Virus record (IMG/VR): IMGVR_UViG_3300003690_000024
Coordinates: 1 to 64,000 of that record
DNA: 64,000 bases
Reading direction: 5' to 3' (one strand)
Source: a virus
A program made the position numbers and the translations under genes. Positions 9,531 through 48,033 of this stretch are shown here, in pieces; positions within the stretch are counted from its first letter, which is position 1; each line of letters opens with the position of its first letter. The notes below the pieces were generated by a model. It had not been told where the DNA came from and did no database searches. It saw only the letters and a list, made by a program, of their open reading frames with translations.

Positions 9531-9890
9531 ATGAAACCACGGAAGTCAGAATCCCAGGGTTTTTGCAACGATTTATCATTCTCACAAAAGCTGAGAGATT
9601 TAGGAAAATCTAACGAAGCATTCGAAGTGATGCTTTCTGCACTAACTCTTGAGGAAATTATAGGTCTTAAACTAGAGTGTTCTAGTCGACTGACTAATGG
9701 AAAGCTATATGGTTTTAATTTGTGGTCAAATATAATTAATATTGTTAAGGAAGCGCTGTATAATGCAGTTATTACTGTGGCACATACCAACAAAGAGGCA
9801 GCCAGGATACTAGGTATTAATGACCAGACCTTTAAAACACTTAAGAGAAAATATAAGATAAGAGAAGAATACGACATTGACTTAGAATAG
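9531..9890 (+). CDS. Fis-family helix-turn-helix protein
   Basis: C-terminal EALYNAVITVAHTNKEAARILGINDQTFKTLKRKYKI matches the Fis/NtrC HTH pattern (N...AA..LGI...T...K.K). Confidence 0.7.
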   Translation: MKPRKSESQGFCNDLSFSQKLRDLGKSNEAFEVMLSALTLEEIIGLKLECSSRLTNGKLYGFNLWSNIINIVKEALYNAVITVAHTNKEAARILGINDQTFKTLKRKYKIREEYDIDLE

Positions 9891-9921
9891 CTTATTTTGA
9901 GATCTATGTCAAGCACTAAAT

Positions 9922-10003
9922 GGGGGTGGTTTGGGTTTCGACGGGGATTAAAGCCTGCAAGGGCAATCTTCGGACCGCGGTTCGATTCCGCGCACCTCCA
10001 CCA
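9922..10003 (+). ncRNA. ssrA: Minimal tmRNA-like RNA (tRNA-like domain only, 82 nt, no mRNA-like domain)
   Basis: Acceptor stem GGGGGTG/CACCTCC with G3.U70, discriminator A and encoded CCA; stemless D-loop GTTTGGGTTTCGA; helix CGGGGATT/AATCTTCG; GAC linker; T-arm CGCGG-TTCGATT-CCGCG. Confidence 0.85.
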
Positions 10004-10017
10004 ATTAAATTTTTTAG

Positions 10018-10049
10018 TTGACATATACAACTATATGTTATATTATAAT
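10018..10049 (+). promoter_or_regulatory. Sigma70-type promoter
   Basis: TTGACA (10018-10023), 17 nt, TATTAT (10041-10046, overlapping TATAAT 10044-10049), upstream of ATG 10060. Confidence 0.6.
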
Positions 10050-10059
10050 TATTATAGAG

Positions 10060-10575
10060 ATGTCAAAATTATTAATAGTATTATTACTACTATATTCTTG
10101 TAACAATCAACTGACAGAAGAGGATGTACGTCAAGAGGAATACGGCGAATTATATGCCACCATGAATTGCTGGTGGAGTAGTCAGCCCAATCTATCACCA
10201 GCCCTCTTTTGGTGTACCGAAACTCTTGATACCGAACTAATTTCCGGATATGTTAGCTTAGCTATTCTAGAAGACCTAGATGGGGAAGAAATGTTTTCCA
10301 TTTGTGGTAAAAATGTAACGCTTAATTCAGGAGTTAGCATATACGACAATATTATCGCATTAATGACTGAAGATACTTATGACTGCCTTCAATCTTATGA
10401 AAGAAATCTTGGAAACGAGTTTGACTGGATCTGGGATAACCCAACGAACACGCTGCAGCTTATATGGCGCCCTACAAACGACGTCGACAAGGTTCTTACG
10501 TTATTTATACCCGAAAAGGTAGATTCTCCACGTGTTTTGGGCTCTGTTTATTACAAAACTGGATATTTTGACTAA
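10060..10575 (+). CDS. Putative lipoprotein
   Basis: Start at ATG 10060 gives MSKLLIVLLLLYSC (signal peptide with lipobox-like Cys). Confidence 0.6.
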   Translation: MSKLLIVLLLLYSCNNQLTEEDVRQEEYGELYATMNCWWSSQPNLSPALFWCTETLDTELISGYVSLAILEDLDGEEMFSICGKNVTLNSGVSIYDNIIALMTEDTYDCLQSYERNLGNEFDWIWDNPTNTLQLIWRPTNDVDKVLTLFIPEKVDSPRVLGSVYYKTGYFD

Positions 10576-12569: not shown

Positions 12570-12645
12570 GCCGGTATAGCTCAGCTGGCAGAGCAGTTGT
12601 CTTGTAAACAACAGGTCCGCGGTTCGAATCCGTGTGCCGGCACCA
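12570..12645 (+). tRNA. tRNA-Thr (anticodon UGU)
   Basis: Full cloverleaf GCCGGTA/TGCCGGC, D-arm GCTC/GAGC, anticodon arm GTTGT-CT TGT AA-ACAAC, T-loop TTCGAAT, encoded CCA. Confidence 0.97.
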
Positions 12646-13214: not shown

Positions 13215-14531
13215 ATGCCTCGTAAAACAACTTATGTGTTAGATACCAGCGTTTATCTTACCAATGCAGAATGTATTTATGCTTTCAAAACTCACGATAT
13301 TCACGTACCTCTGAAAGTTTTTGAAGAAATTGATAAACACAAGAAACGTCAAGATGCCGTCGGAGCCCAAGCGCGAAAGATTATTCGTATTTGGGACGAC
13401 CTCCGCTGCACAGGTTCCCTCGATAAGGGTGTGCGGATCCGCAAAGGATTGGGTGTAGTTAAATCTATTAGTGCCTCCGGAATTCTTGATGATGACCTCC
13501 CTAGGGACTTAGATATCAAAATTCCAGATCATTTAATTATTGCAACAGCGCTAAAAGCTCAACGTGAAAGTACACGCAAAGTGGTTCTGGTCTCGCGGGA
13601 TATTAATATGCGAGTCATTGCTGATGCGGTAGGTCTCGAATCTCAAGATTTCCAGAATAATCAAGTTGTCGACAACAGCGAAAGTATATATGAAGGGAGT
13701 GCAACTGTTTTAGTAGATGATCAAATAATTGATCGATTTTATGAAAAACAAAGCGTATATCTAGAAAACAAAGGCCTTCATCCTAACCAATATATTATGA
13801 TGGTTTCTAATGCCAACGAAAAAAAAACAGCTTTAGGCCGCTATACAAGTGATGTGATGCCTATTCGTCAATTACTGAAAAGCCAACAGATTTGGGGGGT
13901 CAAACCGCGGAATAAAGAACAGCAATTTTTGATGGATGCTCTGATGGATCCTACTATGCAAATTGTGACTGCCATTGGTAAAGCAGGAAGCGGTAAGACG
14001 ATCTGTGCGATCGCTGCAGGCCTTGAACAGACCATAGATGAGACCACACAGGAATACACCCGCGTAATCGTTTCACGGCCCGTACAACCCCTTGGAAAGG
14101 ATATTGGTTTTCTTCCCGGGAGCCTAGAAGAAAAAATGACCCCGTGGCTGATGCCGATCCAAGACAACCTTCAATTTTTAATGGGAAATGATAAACTAAC
14201 TCTTGACATTTATATGCAAAAGGGTATAATAGAGTTAGAAGCATTGACTTATATTCGTGGGCGTTCGATCTCAAATGCTTTTATTATAATTGATGAAGCA
14301 CAGAACTTGACAACTCACGAATTGAAGACTATAATAACAAGAGTAGGTGAAGGAACAAAAATCGTGTTAACTGGAGATGTAGAACAGATTGATAATGTTT
14401 ATATTGATGCGACATCTAATGGATTAACACATGCTGTTGAAAAGTTCAAGAGATTTGAGCTTGCCTCGCACGTAACTTTACATAAGGGCGAGCGCTCAAA
14501 AGTTGCAACCTTCGCCGCTGAAAATTTGTGA
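13215..14531 (+). CDS. phoH: PIN-domain + PhoH-like ATPase (PhoH2/YlaK type)
   Basis: N-terminal YVLDTSV...D..II..A...LVSRDINMR (PIN); Walker A GKAGSGKT, IGFLPG, YIRGRS, IIDEAQN, GDVEQID. Confidence 0.92.
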   Translation: MPRKTTYVLDTSVYLTNAECIYAFKTHDIHVPLKVFEEIDKHKKRQDAVGAQARKIIRIWDDLRCTGSLDKGVRIRKGLGVVKSISASGILDDDLPRDLDIKIPDHLIIATALKAQRESTRKVVLVSRDINMRVIADAVGLESQDFQNNQVVDNSESIYEGSATVLVDDQIIDRFYEKQSVYLENKGLHPNQYIMMVSNANEKKTALGRYTSDVMPIRQLLKSQQIWGVKPRNKEQQFLMDALMDPTMQIVTAIGKAGSGKTICAIAAGLEQTIDETTQEYTRVIVSRPVQPLGKDIGFLPGSLEEKMTPWLMPIQDNLQFLMGNDKLTLDIYMQKGIIELEALTYIRGRSISNAFIIIDEAQNLTTHELKTIITRVGEGTKIVLTGDVEQIDNVYIDATSNGLTHAVEKFKRFELASHVTLHKGERSKVATFAAENL

Positions 14532-44710: not shown

Positions 44711-46504
44711 ATGCCTAAAAAACTACAACCCATTAACTATACAAGCCGTGACTTTGATTCTATTCGCAGAGATTTAGAAGATTACGCAAAAAGATATTAT
44801 CCGAATACCTTTAAAGACTTCAATGAAGCATCATTCGGATCATTGATGCTGGATACTGTATCGTATATTGGCGATATTCTTTCCTTTTATTTAGACTATC
44901 AAACAAACGAGAGTTTTCTAGAAACGGCGGTCGAATATGAGAATGTCGTGCGCCTTGCGCGCCAGATGGGATTTAGATTAAACACAAGCCCCTCTTCATT
45001 CGGGGTCCTCACTTTCTATGTTCAAATCCCATCCCTCACTAGTGGGCCAAACCTTGCGTATGCTCCGGTACTTAAGGCTGGCTCTGTGTTCTCGTCGACT
45101 GGAGGAGGCCTTTACACACTACTGGAAGATGTCGATTTTGCTAAGAGCAATAATCAAATCGTGGCCGGCCAGATAAATTCCGCAACTGGGTCGCCCTCAA
45201 CCTTTGTTATCCGTGCAGTAGGTCGCGGCGTCTCTGGCCGCGTTGTGGTGAAAGAGATCGATATCGGCGAATTTCAAAGATTTACTAGAGTTCAGCTAGA
45301 GACTAGTAACGTGGCAGAAGTTCTTTCTGTTGTGGACTCCGAGGGTCATGAGTATTATGAGGTAGATAATTTATCCCAGAATGTAATTTATAAGTCCATC
45401 CGCAACACAAATACCTCCACCAATGCAACTGTGGGCAATATTCTTAAAGCCACACCGGTAGCTAGAAGATTCACGGTAGAAAGAAACAATGATGAAACTT
45501 ATTTACAGTTCGGATATGGATCAGATTCGGAGCTATTATCCAATTCGGTGGTCGATCCTGCTGATGTTATTATGGATCTCAGCGGCCGCACATATATTAC
45601 TGATCGAGATTTTGATCCCACCAAACTGATTAGTAGCGACAAGTTTGGAATTGCTCCTTCTAATACCACGTTGATTATCAACTATCGTGTAAACACCCTA
45701 GAAGATGTTAATGCCGCAGTAGGCTCAATTACTCGTGTTGATGGTCCAATATTTAGATTCACTGATCAGAGCGCCCTCTCCGTTGGCCTTCGAAACATTT
45801 CAATAACTTCGTTAGAGGTTACTAATGAAGAGCCCTTTGTTGGTGACATTTCGCTTCCCGATTCAGATGAAATAAAACAGCGTGTATTTGGCTATTATGC
45901 TACGCAGCACCGCGCGGTGACAATTCAGGATTACCAATCAATTGCTTATGGAATGCCCACTAAGTTTGGAGCGATAAAAAGAGTCGCAGTCGTTAGGGAC
46001 TTCGATGAATTTAAGAGAAATATAAACCTATATGTGCTTTCTGAGGATACTAGCGGTAAGTTTACAACAGCTAATATAACTCTTAAAAATAATTTAAAGA
46101 CCTGGATCTTACAATATAAAATGATTAACGATACCGTTGATATTCTAGATGCGGTAATTGCTAATTTTGGTATAAATTATGTGGTTACTTTAGATTTAGA
46201 TGCGAACAGATATACGGTGATCAACAAGGCCAATGCTGCGATCGCTGCACATCTTCGTAAGAATATCTATGCCATTGGTGAAGAGATACTCATCACTGAC
46301 TTTTATAAAATTTTACAAAAGATAGAAGGAATCATAGACGTGATAGATCTGGAAGTTGTTGGAAAGTCGGGAGTAAGTTACTCAGATCTAGACTACGATT
46401 TTGAAGGGAGTCTCGCGGCGAACGGCCGCACGATCCTCGCCGCAAAAAATGTTGCATTCGAGCTGAAGTTTCCGAATATAGATATCAAAGGATCTATTCA
46501 ATAA
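44711..46504 (+). CDS. Baseplate wedge protein, T4 gp6-like
   Basis: YTSRDFDSIR, FKDFNEAS.G, SFYLD...NESFLETA, QHRAVTIQDY. Confidence 0.88.
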   Translation: MPKKLQPINYTSRDFDSIRRDLEDYAKRYYPNTFKDFNEASFGSLMLDTVSYIGDILSFYLDYQTNESFLETAVEYENVVRLARQMGFRLNTSPSSFGVLTFYVQIPSLTSGPNLAYAPVLKAGSVFSSTGGGLYTLLEDVDFAKSNNQIVAGQINSATGSPSTFVIRAVGRGVSGRVVVKEIDIGEFQRFTRVQLETSNVAEVLSVVDSEGHEYYEVDNLSQNVIYKSIRNTNTSTNATVGNILKATPVARRFTVERNNDETYLQFGYGSDSELLSNSVVDPADVIMDLSGRTYITDRDFDPTKLISSDKFGIAPSNTTLIINYRVNTLEDVNAAVGSITRVDGPIFRFTDQSALSVGLRNISITSLEVTNEEPFVGDISLPDSDEIKQRVFGYYATQHRAVTIQDYQSIAYGMPTKFGAIKRVAVVRDFDEFKRNINLYVLSEDTSGKFTTANITLKNNLKTWILQYKMINDTVDILDAVIANFGINYVVTLDLDANRYTVINKANAAIAAHLRKNIYAIGEEILITDFYKILQKIEGIIDVIDLEVVGKSGVSYSDLDYDFEGSLAANGRTILAAKNVAFELKFPNIDIKGSIQ

Positions 46505-48033
46505 TGAGTATTTTCAGATATACAGCTAGCGCCGACAACACTATTACAAATGCATTCACAGCTAATCTGCTTGAAATTAACCGTGGCTCAGGGTCAAACA
46601 TGGGATATGCGGATGCTTTAGAAATTTTTTCCATTTATGGGCAAGCCTCCTCATCCGCGGGCCAAACTCAAGAACTATCACGAGCGCTAATTAACTTTTC
46701 GACAGCATCTATAGCGGCAGACAGAACATCCGGTAAGATTCCGGCTTCTGGCAGCGTATCCTTTTATTTGAGGGTCTTCAACGCGCGAACCCCATTTACT
46801 CTTCCTCAAGATTTTACATTAGTCCTCGCGCCCGTTTCTCGTTCGTGGGTTGAGGGAAGCGGCCTCGATATGGATGAATATAAAGATCTTGGAAAGTCCA
46901 ACTGGATGTCCGCAAGCACTACAACGGCATGGACCAGTGTTGGAGGGGACTATCGCACAGGTTCCAATTATGAGGTAGTCTTCCCGCAGGGATATGAAGA
47001 CGTAGAACTTGACGTCACCGAGTTGATGGAAAGGTGGCTAGCTGATGAATTTGAGAGTTATGGGTTTGGCGTTCGTCTCACAGCGAGTCAAGAAGCATAT
47101 TACTCCGGCTCTTCGGGGGTAGACACGGGCAGCCTAATTCAGAATACTGATGGTGCAACACAATCATACTATACGAAAAAGTTCTTTTCCAGATCCACTG
47201 AATTCTTTTTTAAGAGACCAGTTATTGAAGCCAGGTGGGACTCTAGAATTAGCGACGATCGAGAGAACTTCTACTATTCTAGTTCTCTAGCTCCTTCTCT
47301 AGAGAATCTTAATACCATCTATCTTTATAATTACGTGCGCGGGAAGCTTGTCAATATCCCCACCATTGGTACGGGCCCAGTATATGTTTCTTTTTATTCT
47401 AGCTCCAATAACGTTCCGACAGCCTCTGCAATTAAGCTGTCTGAGGGCGGAGATGTTGTCGCGGCCCTAGATATAAATGCCACAGGTGGCTATGTGAGCA
47501 CCGGTATTTACTCCTGCTCGGTTGCCTTAACGGCCGCATCTACACCCTTTGCGCTGGTGCACGATGTATGGAGTAATTACAGCGGCACAATTCAATTCTA
47601 CACGGGATCTATCTATCCAGAATTGATGCCAACTTATGATTCGGCACCTAGCTTCAGCCGCATAACGTCTTGTAAGAATCTTAGAAAGAAGTATTCTAAT
47701 CAAGAGACCGCGCGTTTTAGATTTTTTGTGAGAAATAAAAATTGGAGCCCAACGGTGTATACTGTTTCGACTACCAACAATCCAACAGACATTATACCAA
47801 GCGCTTCATATTCAATTTTTAGAGTAACTGACAACTATAATGCAATTCCATATGGCACTGGCTCTGATTTGAGTACATATTTGTCCTATGATAAGGAGGG
47901 GAATTACTTTGACTTAGACCTATCTTTGCTAGAACAAGACTACATGTATGAAATTAGATTAGCATACTACAATGATAGCATCGGCTCATGGCAAGAACAG
48001 CCGCAAACGTTTAAATTTAGGGTTGAAGAATAA
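46504..48033 (+). CDS. Virion structural protein (beta-rich, Ser/Thr/Gly-rich)
   Basis: Follows gp6; DNTITN, SRALINF, WVEGSG, LDVTELMERW, KKFFSR, P.IEARWD. Confidence 0.7.
   Translation: MSIFRYTASADNTITNAFTANLLEINRGSGSNMGYADALEIFSIYGQASSSAGQTQELSRALINFSTASIAADRTSGKIPASGSVSFYLRVFNARTPFTLPQDFTLVLAPVSRSWVEGSGLDMDEYKDLGKSNWMSASTTTAWTSVGGDYRTGSNYEVVFPQGYEDVELDVTELMERWLADEFESYGFGVRLTASQEAYYSGSSGVDTGSLIQNTDGATQSYYTKKFFSRSTEFFFKRPVIEARWDSRISDDRENFYYSSSLAPSLENLNTIYLYNYVRGKLVNIPTIGTGPVYVSFYSSSNNVPTASAIKLSEGGDVVAALDINATGGYVSTGIYSCSVALTAASTPFALVHDVWSNYSGTIQFYTGSIYPELMPTYDSAPSFSRITSCKNLRKKYSNQETARFRFFVRNKNWSPTVYTVSTTNNPTDIIPSASYSIFRVTDNYNAIPYGTGSDLSTYLSYDKEGNYFDLDLSLLEQDYMYEIRLAYYNDSIGSWQEQPQTFKFRVEE

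Follow-up and report, generated by a model that had tools for sequence, protein, structure and literature searches.

The gene of 82 nt at positions 9922-10003 (+ strand) of the window, the analysed stretch of 64,000 nt that corresponds to positions 1 to 64,000 of the IMG/VR virus record IMGVR_UViG_3300003690_000024, is confirmed by covariance-model and comparative evidence as a phage tmRNA gene consisting of the tRNA-like domain (TLD) only, in which the tag template and all pseudoknots are absent. Judged by synteny, this mini-tmRNA and a full-length tagging tmRNA are, in its lineage, alternative alleles of one locus. With a rough probability of 55%, it is a functional gene whose product would act as a chargeable competitor of the host tmRNA for SmpB and stalled ribosomes, a role predicted from the conserved features described below.

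In bacteria, ribosome rescue and protein tagging proceed mainly through trans-translation. To our knowledge, the dealings of phages with this pathway are poorly understood, and TLD-only tmRNAs have been mentioned in the literature for a single phage.

Identity and structure of the mini-tmRNA

The record, a virus contig from IMG/VR, is 95,396 b long, and its completeness is estimated at 58%. The sequence-only reading of the window had proposed a tmRNA reduced to its TLD and had suggested searches with Infernal and ARAGORN as well as a covariation analysis of homologues. In the Rfam cmscan search, a match to RF00023 (tmRNA) was obtained exactly at 9922-10003 on the + strand, with 73.4 bits and an E value of 1.2e-26 (gathering cut-off 47), and the alignment spanned model positions 1-374, so that both model ends were covered, with 13 nt standing in for 306 consensus positions. 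The proposed reduction to the TLD was thereby upheld, and all feature coordinates given in that reading agreed with the sequence. The features of the locus are listed here, R1 being the covariance model of the mini-tmRNA family that is described further below.

9531..9890, +, upstream gene, 119 aa; first synteny anchor
9907..9921, +, conserved leader TGTCAA-NN-ACTAAAT, abutting G1; from the comparison of alleles
9922..10003, +, mini-tmRNA gene, 82 nt, TLD and helix 2 stub without mRNA-like domain; RF00023 73.4 bits, R1 94.6 bits
9922..9928, +, acceptor stem, 5' strand; pairs with 9993-9999, G3 (9924) with U70 (9997)
9929..9941, +, D-loop analogue, stemless (GG...TTCGA); from the RF00023 consensus alignment
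9942..9949, +, helix 2a, 5' strand; pairs with 9965-9972
9950..9952, +, AAA bulge on the 5' side; equals the 3-nt bulge (GAa) between helices 2a and 2b in the tmRNA consensus
9953..9964, +, apical hairpin (helix 2b stub), GCCU / GGGC with GCAA loop; 4-bp stem in the window allele
9973-9975, +, GAC linker; from the sequence
9976..9992, +, T-arm, 5 bp, loop UUCGAUU; 100% paired in the family
10000..10003, +, discriminator A and encoded CCA; from the sequence itself
10018-10046, sigma-70-like promoter of the downstream gene; from the promoter scan
10060..10575, +, downstream gene, 171 aa, lipoprotein-like N-terminus; second synteny anchor, homologues of which follow mini and full alleles
12570-12645, tRNA-Thr(TGT); from ARAGORN

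The molecule has the make-up of a TLD, with no anticodon arm, a stemless D-region ending in TTCGAC and a helix 2a opened by non-standard G/A pairs, where G19 and A20 (9940-9941) lie opposite G52 and A53 (9973-9974) in an arrangement that matches the opening of this helix in the Rfam model. In the RF00023 alignment the T-arm of 5 bp carries a loop of the GTTCRANYC type. The alanine identity set, G3.U70 (9924/9997) and A73 (10000), was intact, as the sequence-only reading had stated. In the Rfam tmRNA consensus, helix 2a is followed by a 3-nt bulge in the 5' strand (GAa) and then by helix 2b; because the A-rich bulge and the C-rich stem of the mini-tmRNA correspond to this junction, the molecule is read as the TLD together with helix 2a, the bulge at the 2a/2b junction and the initial 3-4 bp of helix 2b.

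The mRNA-like domain (resume codon, tag frame and stop) was absent from the window mini, in which ARAGORN found no tag, and the reading frame from GCC at 9953 met no stop before the 3' end of the mini. The pseudoknots PK1-PK4 were also absent, there being no sequence that could form them. ARAGORN made no tmRNA call at 9922-10003, and its sole report was the tRNA-Thr at 12570-12645. The folding energy of the window mini by itself was not significant (z -1.73), so the case for its identity rests on the covariance-model score and on the comparative data.

Three other assignments of the site were considered and rejected. For a two-piece (permuted) tmRNA (RF04321, RF01849-51), no permuted-model match was found at the site and the halves stand in standard order, in agreement with the sequence-only reading. 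For a tRNA (RF00005) or tRNA-Ala, neither ARAGORN nor Rfam gave a tRNA call at 9922-10003, and the apical loop is not a 7-nt anticodon loop. An integration remnant (attP) was dismissed since both TLD halves are present and the record encodes no tyrosine integrase.

Surroundings of the locus

Phage genes in the window include those for a PIN-PhoH protein, a baseplate wedge protein, an endolysin and a large glycan cluster. The first of these, a PIN-domain/PhoH-like ATPase fusion (Pfam PIN_4 and PhoH; phrog_2765), is located at 13215-14531, 3 kb downstream of the mini and after the tRNA-Thr(TGT) gene. By eye, the C-terminus of the upstream 119-aa protein looks like a helix-turn-helix, and no profile match was obtained for this protein. 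No second tmRNA was present in the record, and the absence of a tag frame and of smpB, which had been reported for the window, holds in the whole record. Genes for Pth, an RF-1/ArfB-domain protein or a CCA-adding enzyme were not found in the record, which is 58% complete.

No SmpB (PF01668) was found in 50 viral records that bear a mini, including 17 with a completeness of at least 90%, in 5 large relatives with either allele or in the record of the window. The phage mini would have to use the SmpB of the infected cell.

Conservation of the mini-tmRNA within its lineage

Within its lineage, the window mini has orthologues in many samples, on 51 metagenome contigs and on 4 viral contigs. Among the 30 distinct alleles, G3.U70 was present in all 30, the acceptor stem and T-arm were 100% paired, and 7 pairs showed changes on both sides, including helix 2a pair 24/52 (GC in 17 rows, UA in 13) and a compensatory T-arm pair (AU in 22 rows, GC in 8). 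Conservation at the locus was highest in the mini: over 39 distinct loci its mean pairwise identity was 89%, compared with 80% at the end of the upstream gene, 73% in the leader and 45% in the downstream spacer. On these comparative grounds, the window mini is a real, selected gene, and the view that its structure is selected and not decayed finds support both in these pairing-preserving changes and in the covariation of the wider family.

Two features to which the sequence-only reading had given weight did not keep it. The U35.G40 pair that closes the GNRA tetraloop was missing in 24 of the 30 distinct alleles, where a UGCAAU hexaloop sits on a stem of 3 bp, so the tetraloop is not retained as a meaningful feature. 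CCUGCAA was nearly invariant in the lineage of the window. The UGC of this loop, which had been pointed out as the alanine anticodon, was not conserved across the wider family, and in other lineages the apical loops vary (CACG, CAUG, GNRA and others).

A slot shared with full-length tmRNA

The upstream gene (9531-9890) was used as the synteny anchor and as the search query. In viral contigs, the four closest anchor relatives (L316, L317/L318, L319; 74-85% protein identity) carry a mini directly after the anchor, and 13 further viral relatives (41-71%) have a full one-piece tmRNA in the same place, with lengths of 314-434 nt, scores of 105-134 bits and tags that are canonical degrons (ANDADYGLALAA, ANEADYGLALAA, ANNNNHFESVRLAA, ANDNVEFDYAIAA and others). 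In the closest relatives, the tmRNA or mini starts ~25-55 nt past the anchor stop. Synteny extends on both sides of the slot, in the order orf6514, orf8667, anchor gene, slot, orf10060 and orf10532.

In metagenomes, the best 80 relatives of the anchor gene (75-88% identity) were sampled, 10 of which were cut before the slot, leaving 70 informative cases. Among these 70, a mini was present in 51 and a full form in 19; 17 of the full forms had ARAGORN tags such as ANDADYGLALAA, ANNADYDLALAA and ANNAEYDLAIAA, and 2 were truncated where the contig stops. The full allele accompanies two of the closest anchor proteins (L339 and L340, 86.6%). In the tree of two upstream proteins, mini carriers and the full carriers L320-L322 fell into one clade (100/100) with an unresolved interior, and every outgroup either had the full form or lacked both.

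The full alleles span 311-434 nt and possess pseudoknots and a tag frame ending in LAA or IAA. The mini alleles have a T-arm of their own (CRCGG/CCGYG), as against GUGGG/CCCAC in the full alleles, and a D-region that is 2 nt longer, and for this reason the minis are regarded as a distinct allele class and not as fresh deletions of the sampled full alleles. The TLD halves of mini and full forms are too short and too diverged, in T-arm and D-region length, to trace deletion end points; the mini may have originated by in-place deletion, or through allelic replacement by recombination with a mini from elsewhere.

A TGTCAAG motif was observed 8-13 nt upstream of both mini and full alleles (L316, L318, L319, L320-L322, L339 and others), and in the mini alleles TGTCAA(G) is followed by ACTAAAT, which abuts G1. 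This leader may be a processing or promoter element. In the promoter scan, no convincing promoter of its own was found for the mini, and the ACTAAAT box was rejected as a mini promoter since it abuts G1, a spacing too short for an intact 5' end.

The mini was the sole tmRNA-like gene in 33 of 34 records. The remaining one, the L162 record (G012), is a complete phage genome of 123,582 b with a mini at 46486-46567 (65 bits) and a full 392-nt tmRNA at 77588-77979 (94 bits), indicating that both forms can coexist.

A family of phage mini-tmRNAs

With a DNA pattern in which the D-region is joined to the T-arm within 10-40 nt, 12 viral contigs were found, each with an RF00023 match of 80-85 nt at 53-76 bits. 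The covariance model R1 was built from this first set, and two looser patterns gave at least 120 matches each. R1 recovered at least 93 matches (86 distinct rows) in the first alignment and at least 59 in the second. In total, at least 126 distinct minis of 62-98 nt were collected from phage contigs; among the matches listed, the length was 80-83 nt in 93 of the 125 parsable distinct members, which come from unrelated phages.

The covariation analysis of homologues gave a clear result for this collection of at least 126 distinct minis. In the 86 distinct rows, pairing was found in 93.2% of cells compared with 63.5% after shuffling and at most 57% in slid controls, and the covariation score was 0.649 compared with 0.129 in shuffles, a value reached by 0 of 500 shuffles. 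The acceptor stem and T-arm were 99.7-100% paired in the family, with 4 of the 5 T-arm pairs covarying, and helix 2a was 93% paired, with changes on both sides in 7 of its 8 pairs. Among the matches listed, 54 distinct rows came from a pattern without constraint on the acceptor stem; G3.U70 was present in 51 of these 54, the 3 exceptions being the weakest, doubtful hits, A73 was present in all 54, and G1-C72 and G2-C71 were essentially universal. A GGAC linker recurred in most of the family members retrieved with a pattern that left these positions free, and only about a fifth of the family encodes CCA. The A-rich bulge followed by a C-rich stem of 3-4 bp was recurrent across the family, and the bulge is also present in Mycobacterium phage DS6A.

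Some members depart from this form. In a shorter class of 62-68 nt (L184, L237, L141, L204, L248, L138, L218, L140 and L315), the bulge and the helix 2b stub are lacking and a small loop closes helix 2a directly. Two viral contigs (L257 and L269) have 98-nt forms at 48-50 bits, similar to the R1 hits of ~98 nt at 36-40 bits on Planctomycetota and other GC-rich MAG contigs (L087, L025, L056 and L124), and for these MAG hits divergent minis, type II tRNAs and fragments of full tmRNAs are all possible identities. One contig (L272) gave two R1 hits 1.2 kb apart (5-84 and 1317-1395); the T-loop of the first is aberrant, and this hit may be a second copy in degenerate form.

The loose-pattern search of genome contigs returned 118 places, which were weak hits (23-42 bits) in GC-rich MAGs besides one locus, L072. 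This locus is the same as L009 (QCKN01000003.1, 130,604 b), a record filed under a Prochlorococcus single-cell genome and identical to the 130.6-kb record of an IMG/VR viral genome, so a Prochlorococcus host link is possible for this mini carrier. A bacterial MAG locus (L116) was removed as a false positive, being the 3' part of a genuine full tmRNA with the tag ANADYALAA, and besides L116, L111 was left out of the family set. ARAGORN 'tmRNA' calls overlapping the minis in L155 and L149 were judged spurious, since their unidentified tags run through flanking sequence. No match of the locus to cultured phages was obtained by blastn, and the mycobacteriophage matches to the 82 nt alone covered only 32 nt of the 3' end with no annotation under them and were not accepted as mini homologues.

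Roughly a fifth of the minis have a tRNA gene within 500 nt. In small HK97-type contigs, the mini is located in the head-morphogenesis operon between the portal/prohead protease gene and the major capsid gene, and in another group of contigs it directly follows the large terminase gene; operon-embedded minis were seen in L225, L227, L183, L157 and related loci. The proximity to tRNA genes and the positions in late operons suggest that minis are co-transcribed with their neighbours and processed in the manner of tRNAs. A Pistol ribozyme (RF02679, 51-70 bits) was observed 2-3 kb from the mini in three marine phage contigs (L006 13302-13377, L009 1621-1716 and L010 5916-6012).

Comparison with known tmRNA forms

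The novelty implied by the sequence-only reading has to be given up for the kind of molecule as such. Mycobacterium phage DS6A is listed as 'TLD only' (tmRNA Website tmID 11587; Hudson, Lau and Williams 2014, PMC4131195; PMC11915505), and since this form was already published, a TLD-only phage tmRNA is not new as a kind; the passages on DS6A in these two sources also state that a similar molecule inhibits tmRNA. The DS6A copy was located at JN698994 28478-28560, with 43.2 bits in Rfam (below the cut-off) and 50.7 bits with R1. It resembles the window mini in being phage-encoded and ~82-83 nt long, with a complete alanine-type TLD, no tag frame and a match to the same R1 model, and in having helix 2a, an A-rich bulge and a short hairpin (CCG/CGG in DS6A). 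It differs in several respects: DS6A is a temperate siphovirus of Mycobacterium, whereas the phage of the window is a marine T4-like phage of about 150-200 kb; the Rfam score of 43.2 bits falls below the cut-off, compared with 73.4 bits for the window mini; and allelism with a full phage tmRNA was seen for the window mini and is not described for DS6A.

Full one-piece phage tmRNAs are known from mycobacteriophages of the Bxz1 type (PMC4131195) and from huge phages (PMC7162821). The sister full alleles of the present locus (L320-L334, L339 and others) share with the mini the locus, flanking genes, leader motif, TLD architecture and lack of a phage SmpB, and differ from it in having pseudoknots and a tag frame (ANDADYGLALAA, ANNADYDLALAA and others), of which the mini has none.

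Natural forms reduced to the TLD also exist in organelles. For jakobid mitochondrial tmRNAs without mRNA-like domain, the role has been read as only the freeing of stalled ribosomes (PMC3590771), and CDS-less plastid tmRNAs of roughly 65 bp occur in Mallomonadaceae (PMC11915505). Like the phage mini, the organellar forms keep G3.U70 and the discriminator A and are read as acting without a tag, whereas they are mostly two-piece (permuted) and co-occur with the SmpB of the organism itself, and the phage mini is one-piece and would have to use the SmpB of the infected cell. Engineered TLD fragments comprise the same minimal domain, and a peptidyl-transfer assay with a truncated TLD-only tmRNA as acceptor is described in a passage of PMC3895274 that cites Shimizu and Ueda 2006; these are laboratory constructs with helix 2a closed arbitrarily, while the natural family keeps the 2a/2b bulge and the helix 2b stub.

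According to a passage of PMC4131195 that cites Mao et al. 2009, a TLD-only molecule strongly inhibits tmRNA, possibly by titration of SmpB, and the inhibition by a similar TLD-only molecule is repeated in the corresponding passage of the 2025 tmRNA database paper (PMC11915505). As these passages present the experiments of Mao et al. 2009, the inhibition was independent of charging and the outcome for the similar molecule was inhibition, not complementation. The SmpB decoy and the tag-less acceptor, both put forward in the sequence-only reading, are also the two hypotheses of the literature on DS6A-type and organellar CDS-less tmRNAs (PMC4131195, PMC11915505, PMC3590771).

Predicted function and alternative explanations

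For the window mini, competition with the host tmRNA is the preferred explanation. The mini would be cut from a longer transcript in the manner of a tRNA and would then be charged by the host alanyl-tRNA synthetase through G3.U70 and A73, identity elements that are conserved as described above. Host SmpB would bind it, the phage having no smpB, and the resulting Ala-RNA-SmpB-EF-Tu complex would compete with the host tmRNA both for SmpB and for ribosomes that have stalled on broken mRNAs. Stalled ribosomes would receive one alanine and no degradation tag, through which ssrA tagging would be lowered during infection. For the competition step, the support published in the cited passages of PMC4131195 and PMC11915505 concerns a similar engineered molecule and consists of tmRNA inhibition only.

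From the conservation of G1-C72, G2-C71, A73 and G3.U70 in the unconstrained rows, we infer that charging is under selection. The strict conservation of the alanine identity set, although the cited inhibition needed no charging, suggests a role that goes beyond SmpB titration and in which entry into the ribosome would matter. Two observations stand against the competitor model: it is odd that sister phages keep a full tmRNA with a canonical degron tag in the same slot, and there is no convincing promoter belonging to the mini itself.

The main rival to the competitor model is tag-less rescue, by analogy with what has been proposed for jakobid mitochondria, and it is possible, although clearly the less probable of the two. 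Here the charged mini with SmpB would accept the nascent chain (+1 Ala), and the ribosome would be freed by host ArfA/RF2, by ArfB or by peptidyl-tRNA drop-off and Pth; the benefit would be the recycling of ribosomes during infection without destruction of the (phage) protein, that is, rescue and not inhibition. The strict alanine identity set, which SmpB titration alone would not need, is consistent with this explanation, as are the interpretation given to the jakobid tmRNAs without mRNA-like domain (PMC3590771) and the replacement of a rescue-competent full tmRNA by the mini in the same slot of the lineage. However, the mini has no stop codon and cannot itself end translation, ArfA and ArfB could deal with a stalled ribosome in its absence, and Pth, an RF-1/ArfB-domain protein and a CCA-adding enzyme are absent from the record, itself only 58% complete. 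The similar molecule, moreover, inhibited and did not complement in the published passages (PMC4131195, PMC11915505).

A role outside trans-translation is unlikely. The mini could serve as an RNase P processing or punctuation signal, as a stabiliser of transcript ends, or as an alanine donor or decoy for another tRNA-dependent enzyme or a defence nuclease, and the late-operon positions of minis in other lineages (prohead protease/portal to major capsid gene; after the terminase gene), as well as the one in five minis within 500 nt of a tRNA gene, would fit such a role. A processing signal, however, needs no G3.U70, A73, stemless D-region, GGAC linker or helix 2a, all of which are conserved, and the alternative allele in this lineage is a true tmRNA.

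A decaying, functionless remnant of a full phage tmRNA, as the full gene at this position in sister phages might suggest, is very improbable: such a neutral remnant is disfavoured by conservation within the lineage, where the mini is the most conserved segment of the locus and substitutions among the 30 distinct alleles preserve pairing, and also by the length held at 80-83 nt in 93 of 125 members from unrelated phages among the matches listed and by the one phage (L162 record) that keeps both forms. The sequence-only reading had linked the finding of a full-length tmRNA at this site in close relatives with an assembly deletion; full-length alleles are indeed present in close relatives, yet an artefact in which the middle of a normal tmRNA was deleted is excluded by the conservation and the compensatory changes of the 30 distinct alleles, the same 82-83 nt gene recurring in many samples, on 51 independent metagenome contigs and on 4 viral ones, and the T-arm and longer D-region peculiar to the mini alleles indicating that they are not collapsed full copies.

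Significance

TLD-only tmRNAs are common in phage contigs, and standard annotation misses them, ARAGORN making no call. What is new here is the allelism of mini and full tmRNA at one locus, together with the precise anatomy of the mini. The persistence of the full tagging allele in sister phages is not explained by a simple 'blocking is good' model. As a tentative suggestion, mini and full forms might be alleles kept side by side in one marine T4-like population that embody opposite strategies toward host trans-translation, the full form boosting rescue and tagging and the mini capturing SmpB and stalled ribosomes without a tag. Which of the two is favoured would depend on the host or on the RNA-cleaving defence encountered, and unrelated phages would have arrived repeatedly at the same solution of 80-83 nt. 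One possibility within this suggestion is that successive entries of the mini add untemplated alanines.

The locus offers a natural experiment, in which close relatives differ mainly by having a full tagging tmRNA or a mini between the same two genes. Comparison of the two alleles could show which of rescue, tagging or the blocking of tagging matters to the phage, and the locus could also show the minimum size of a working tmRNA head.
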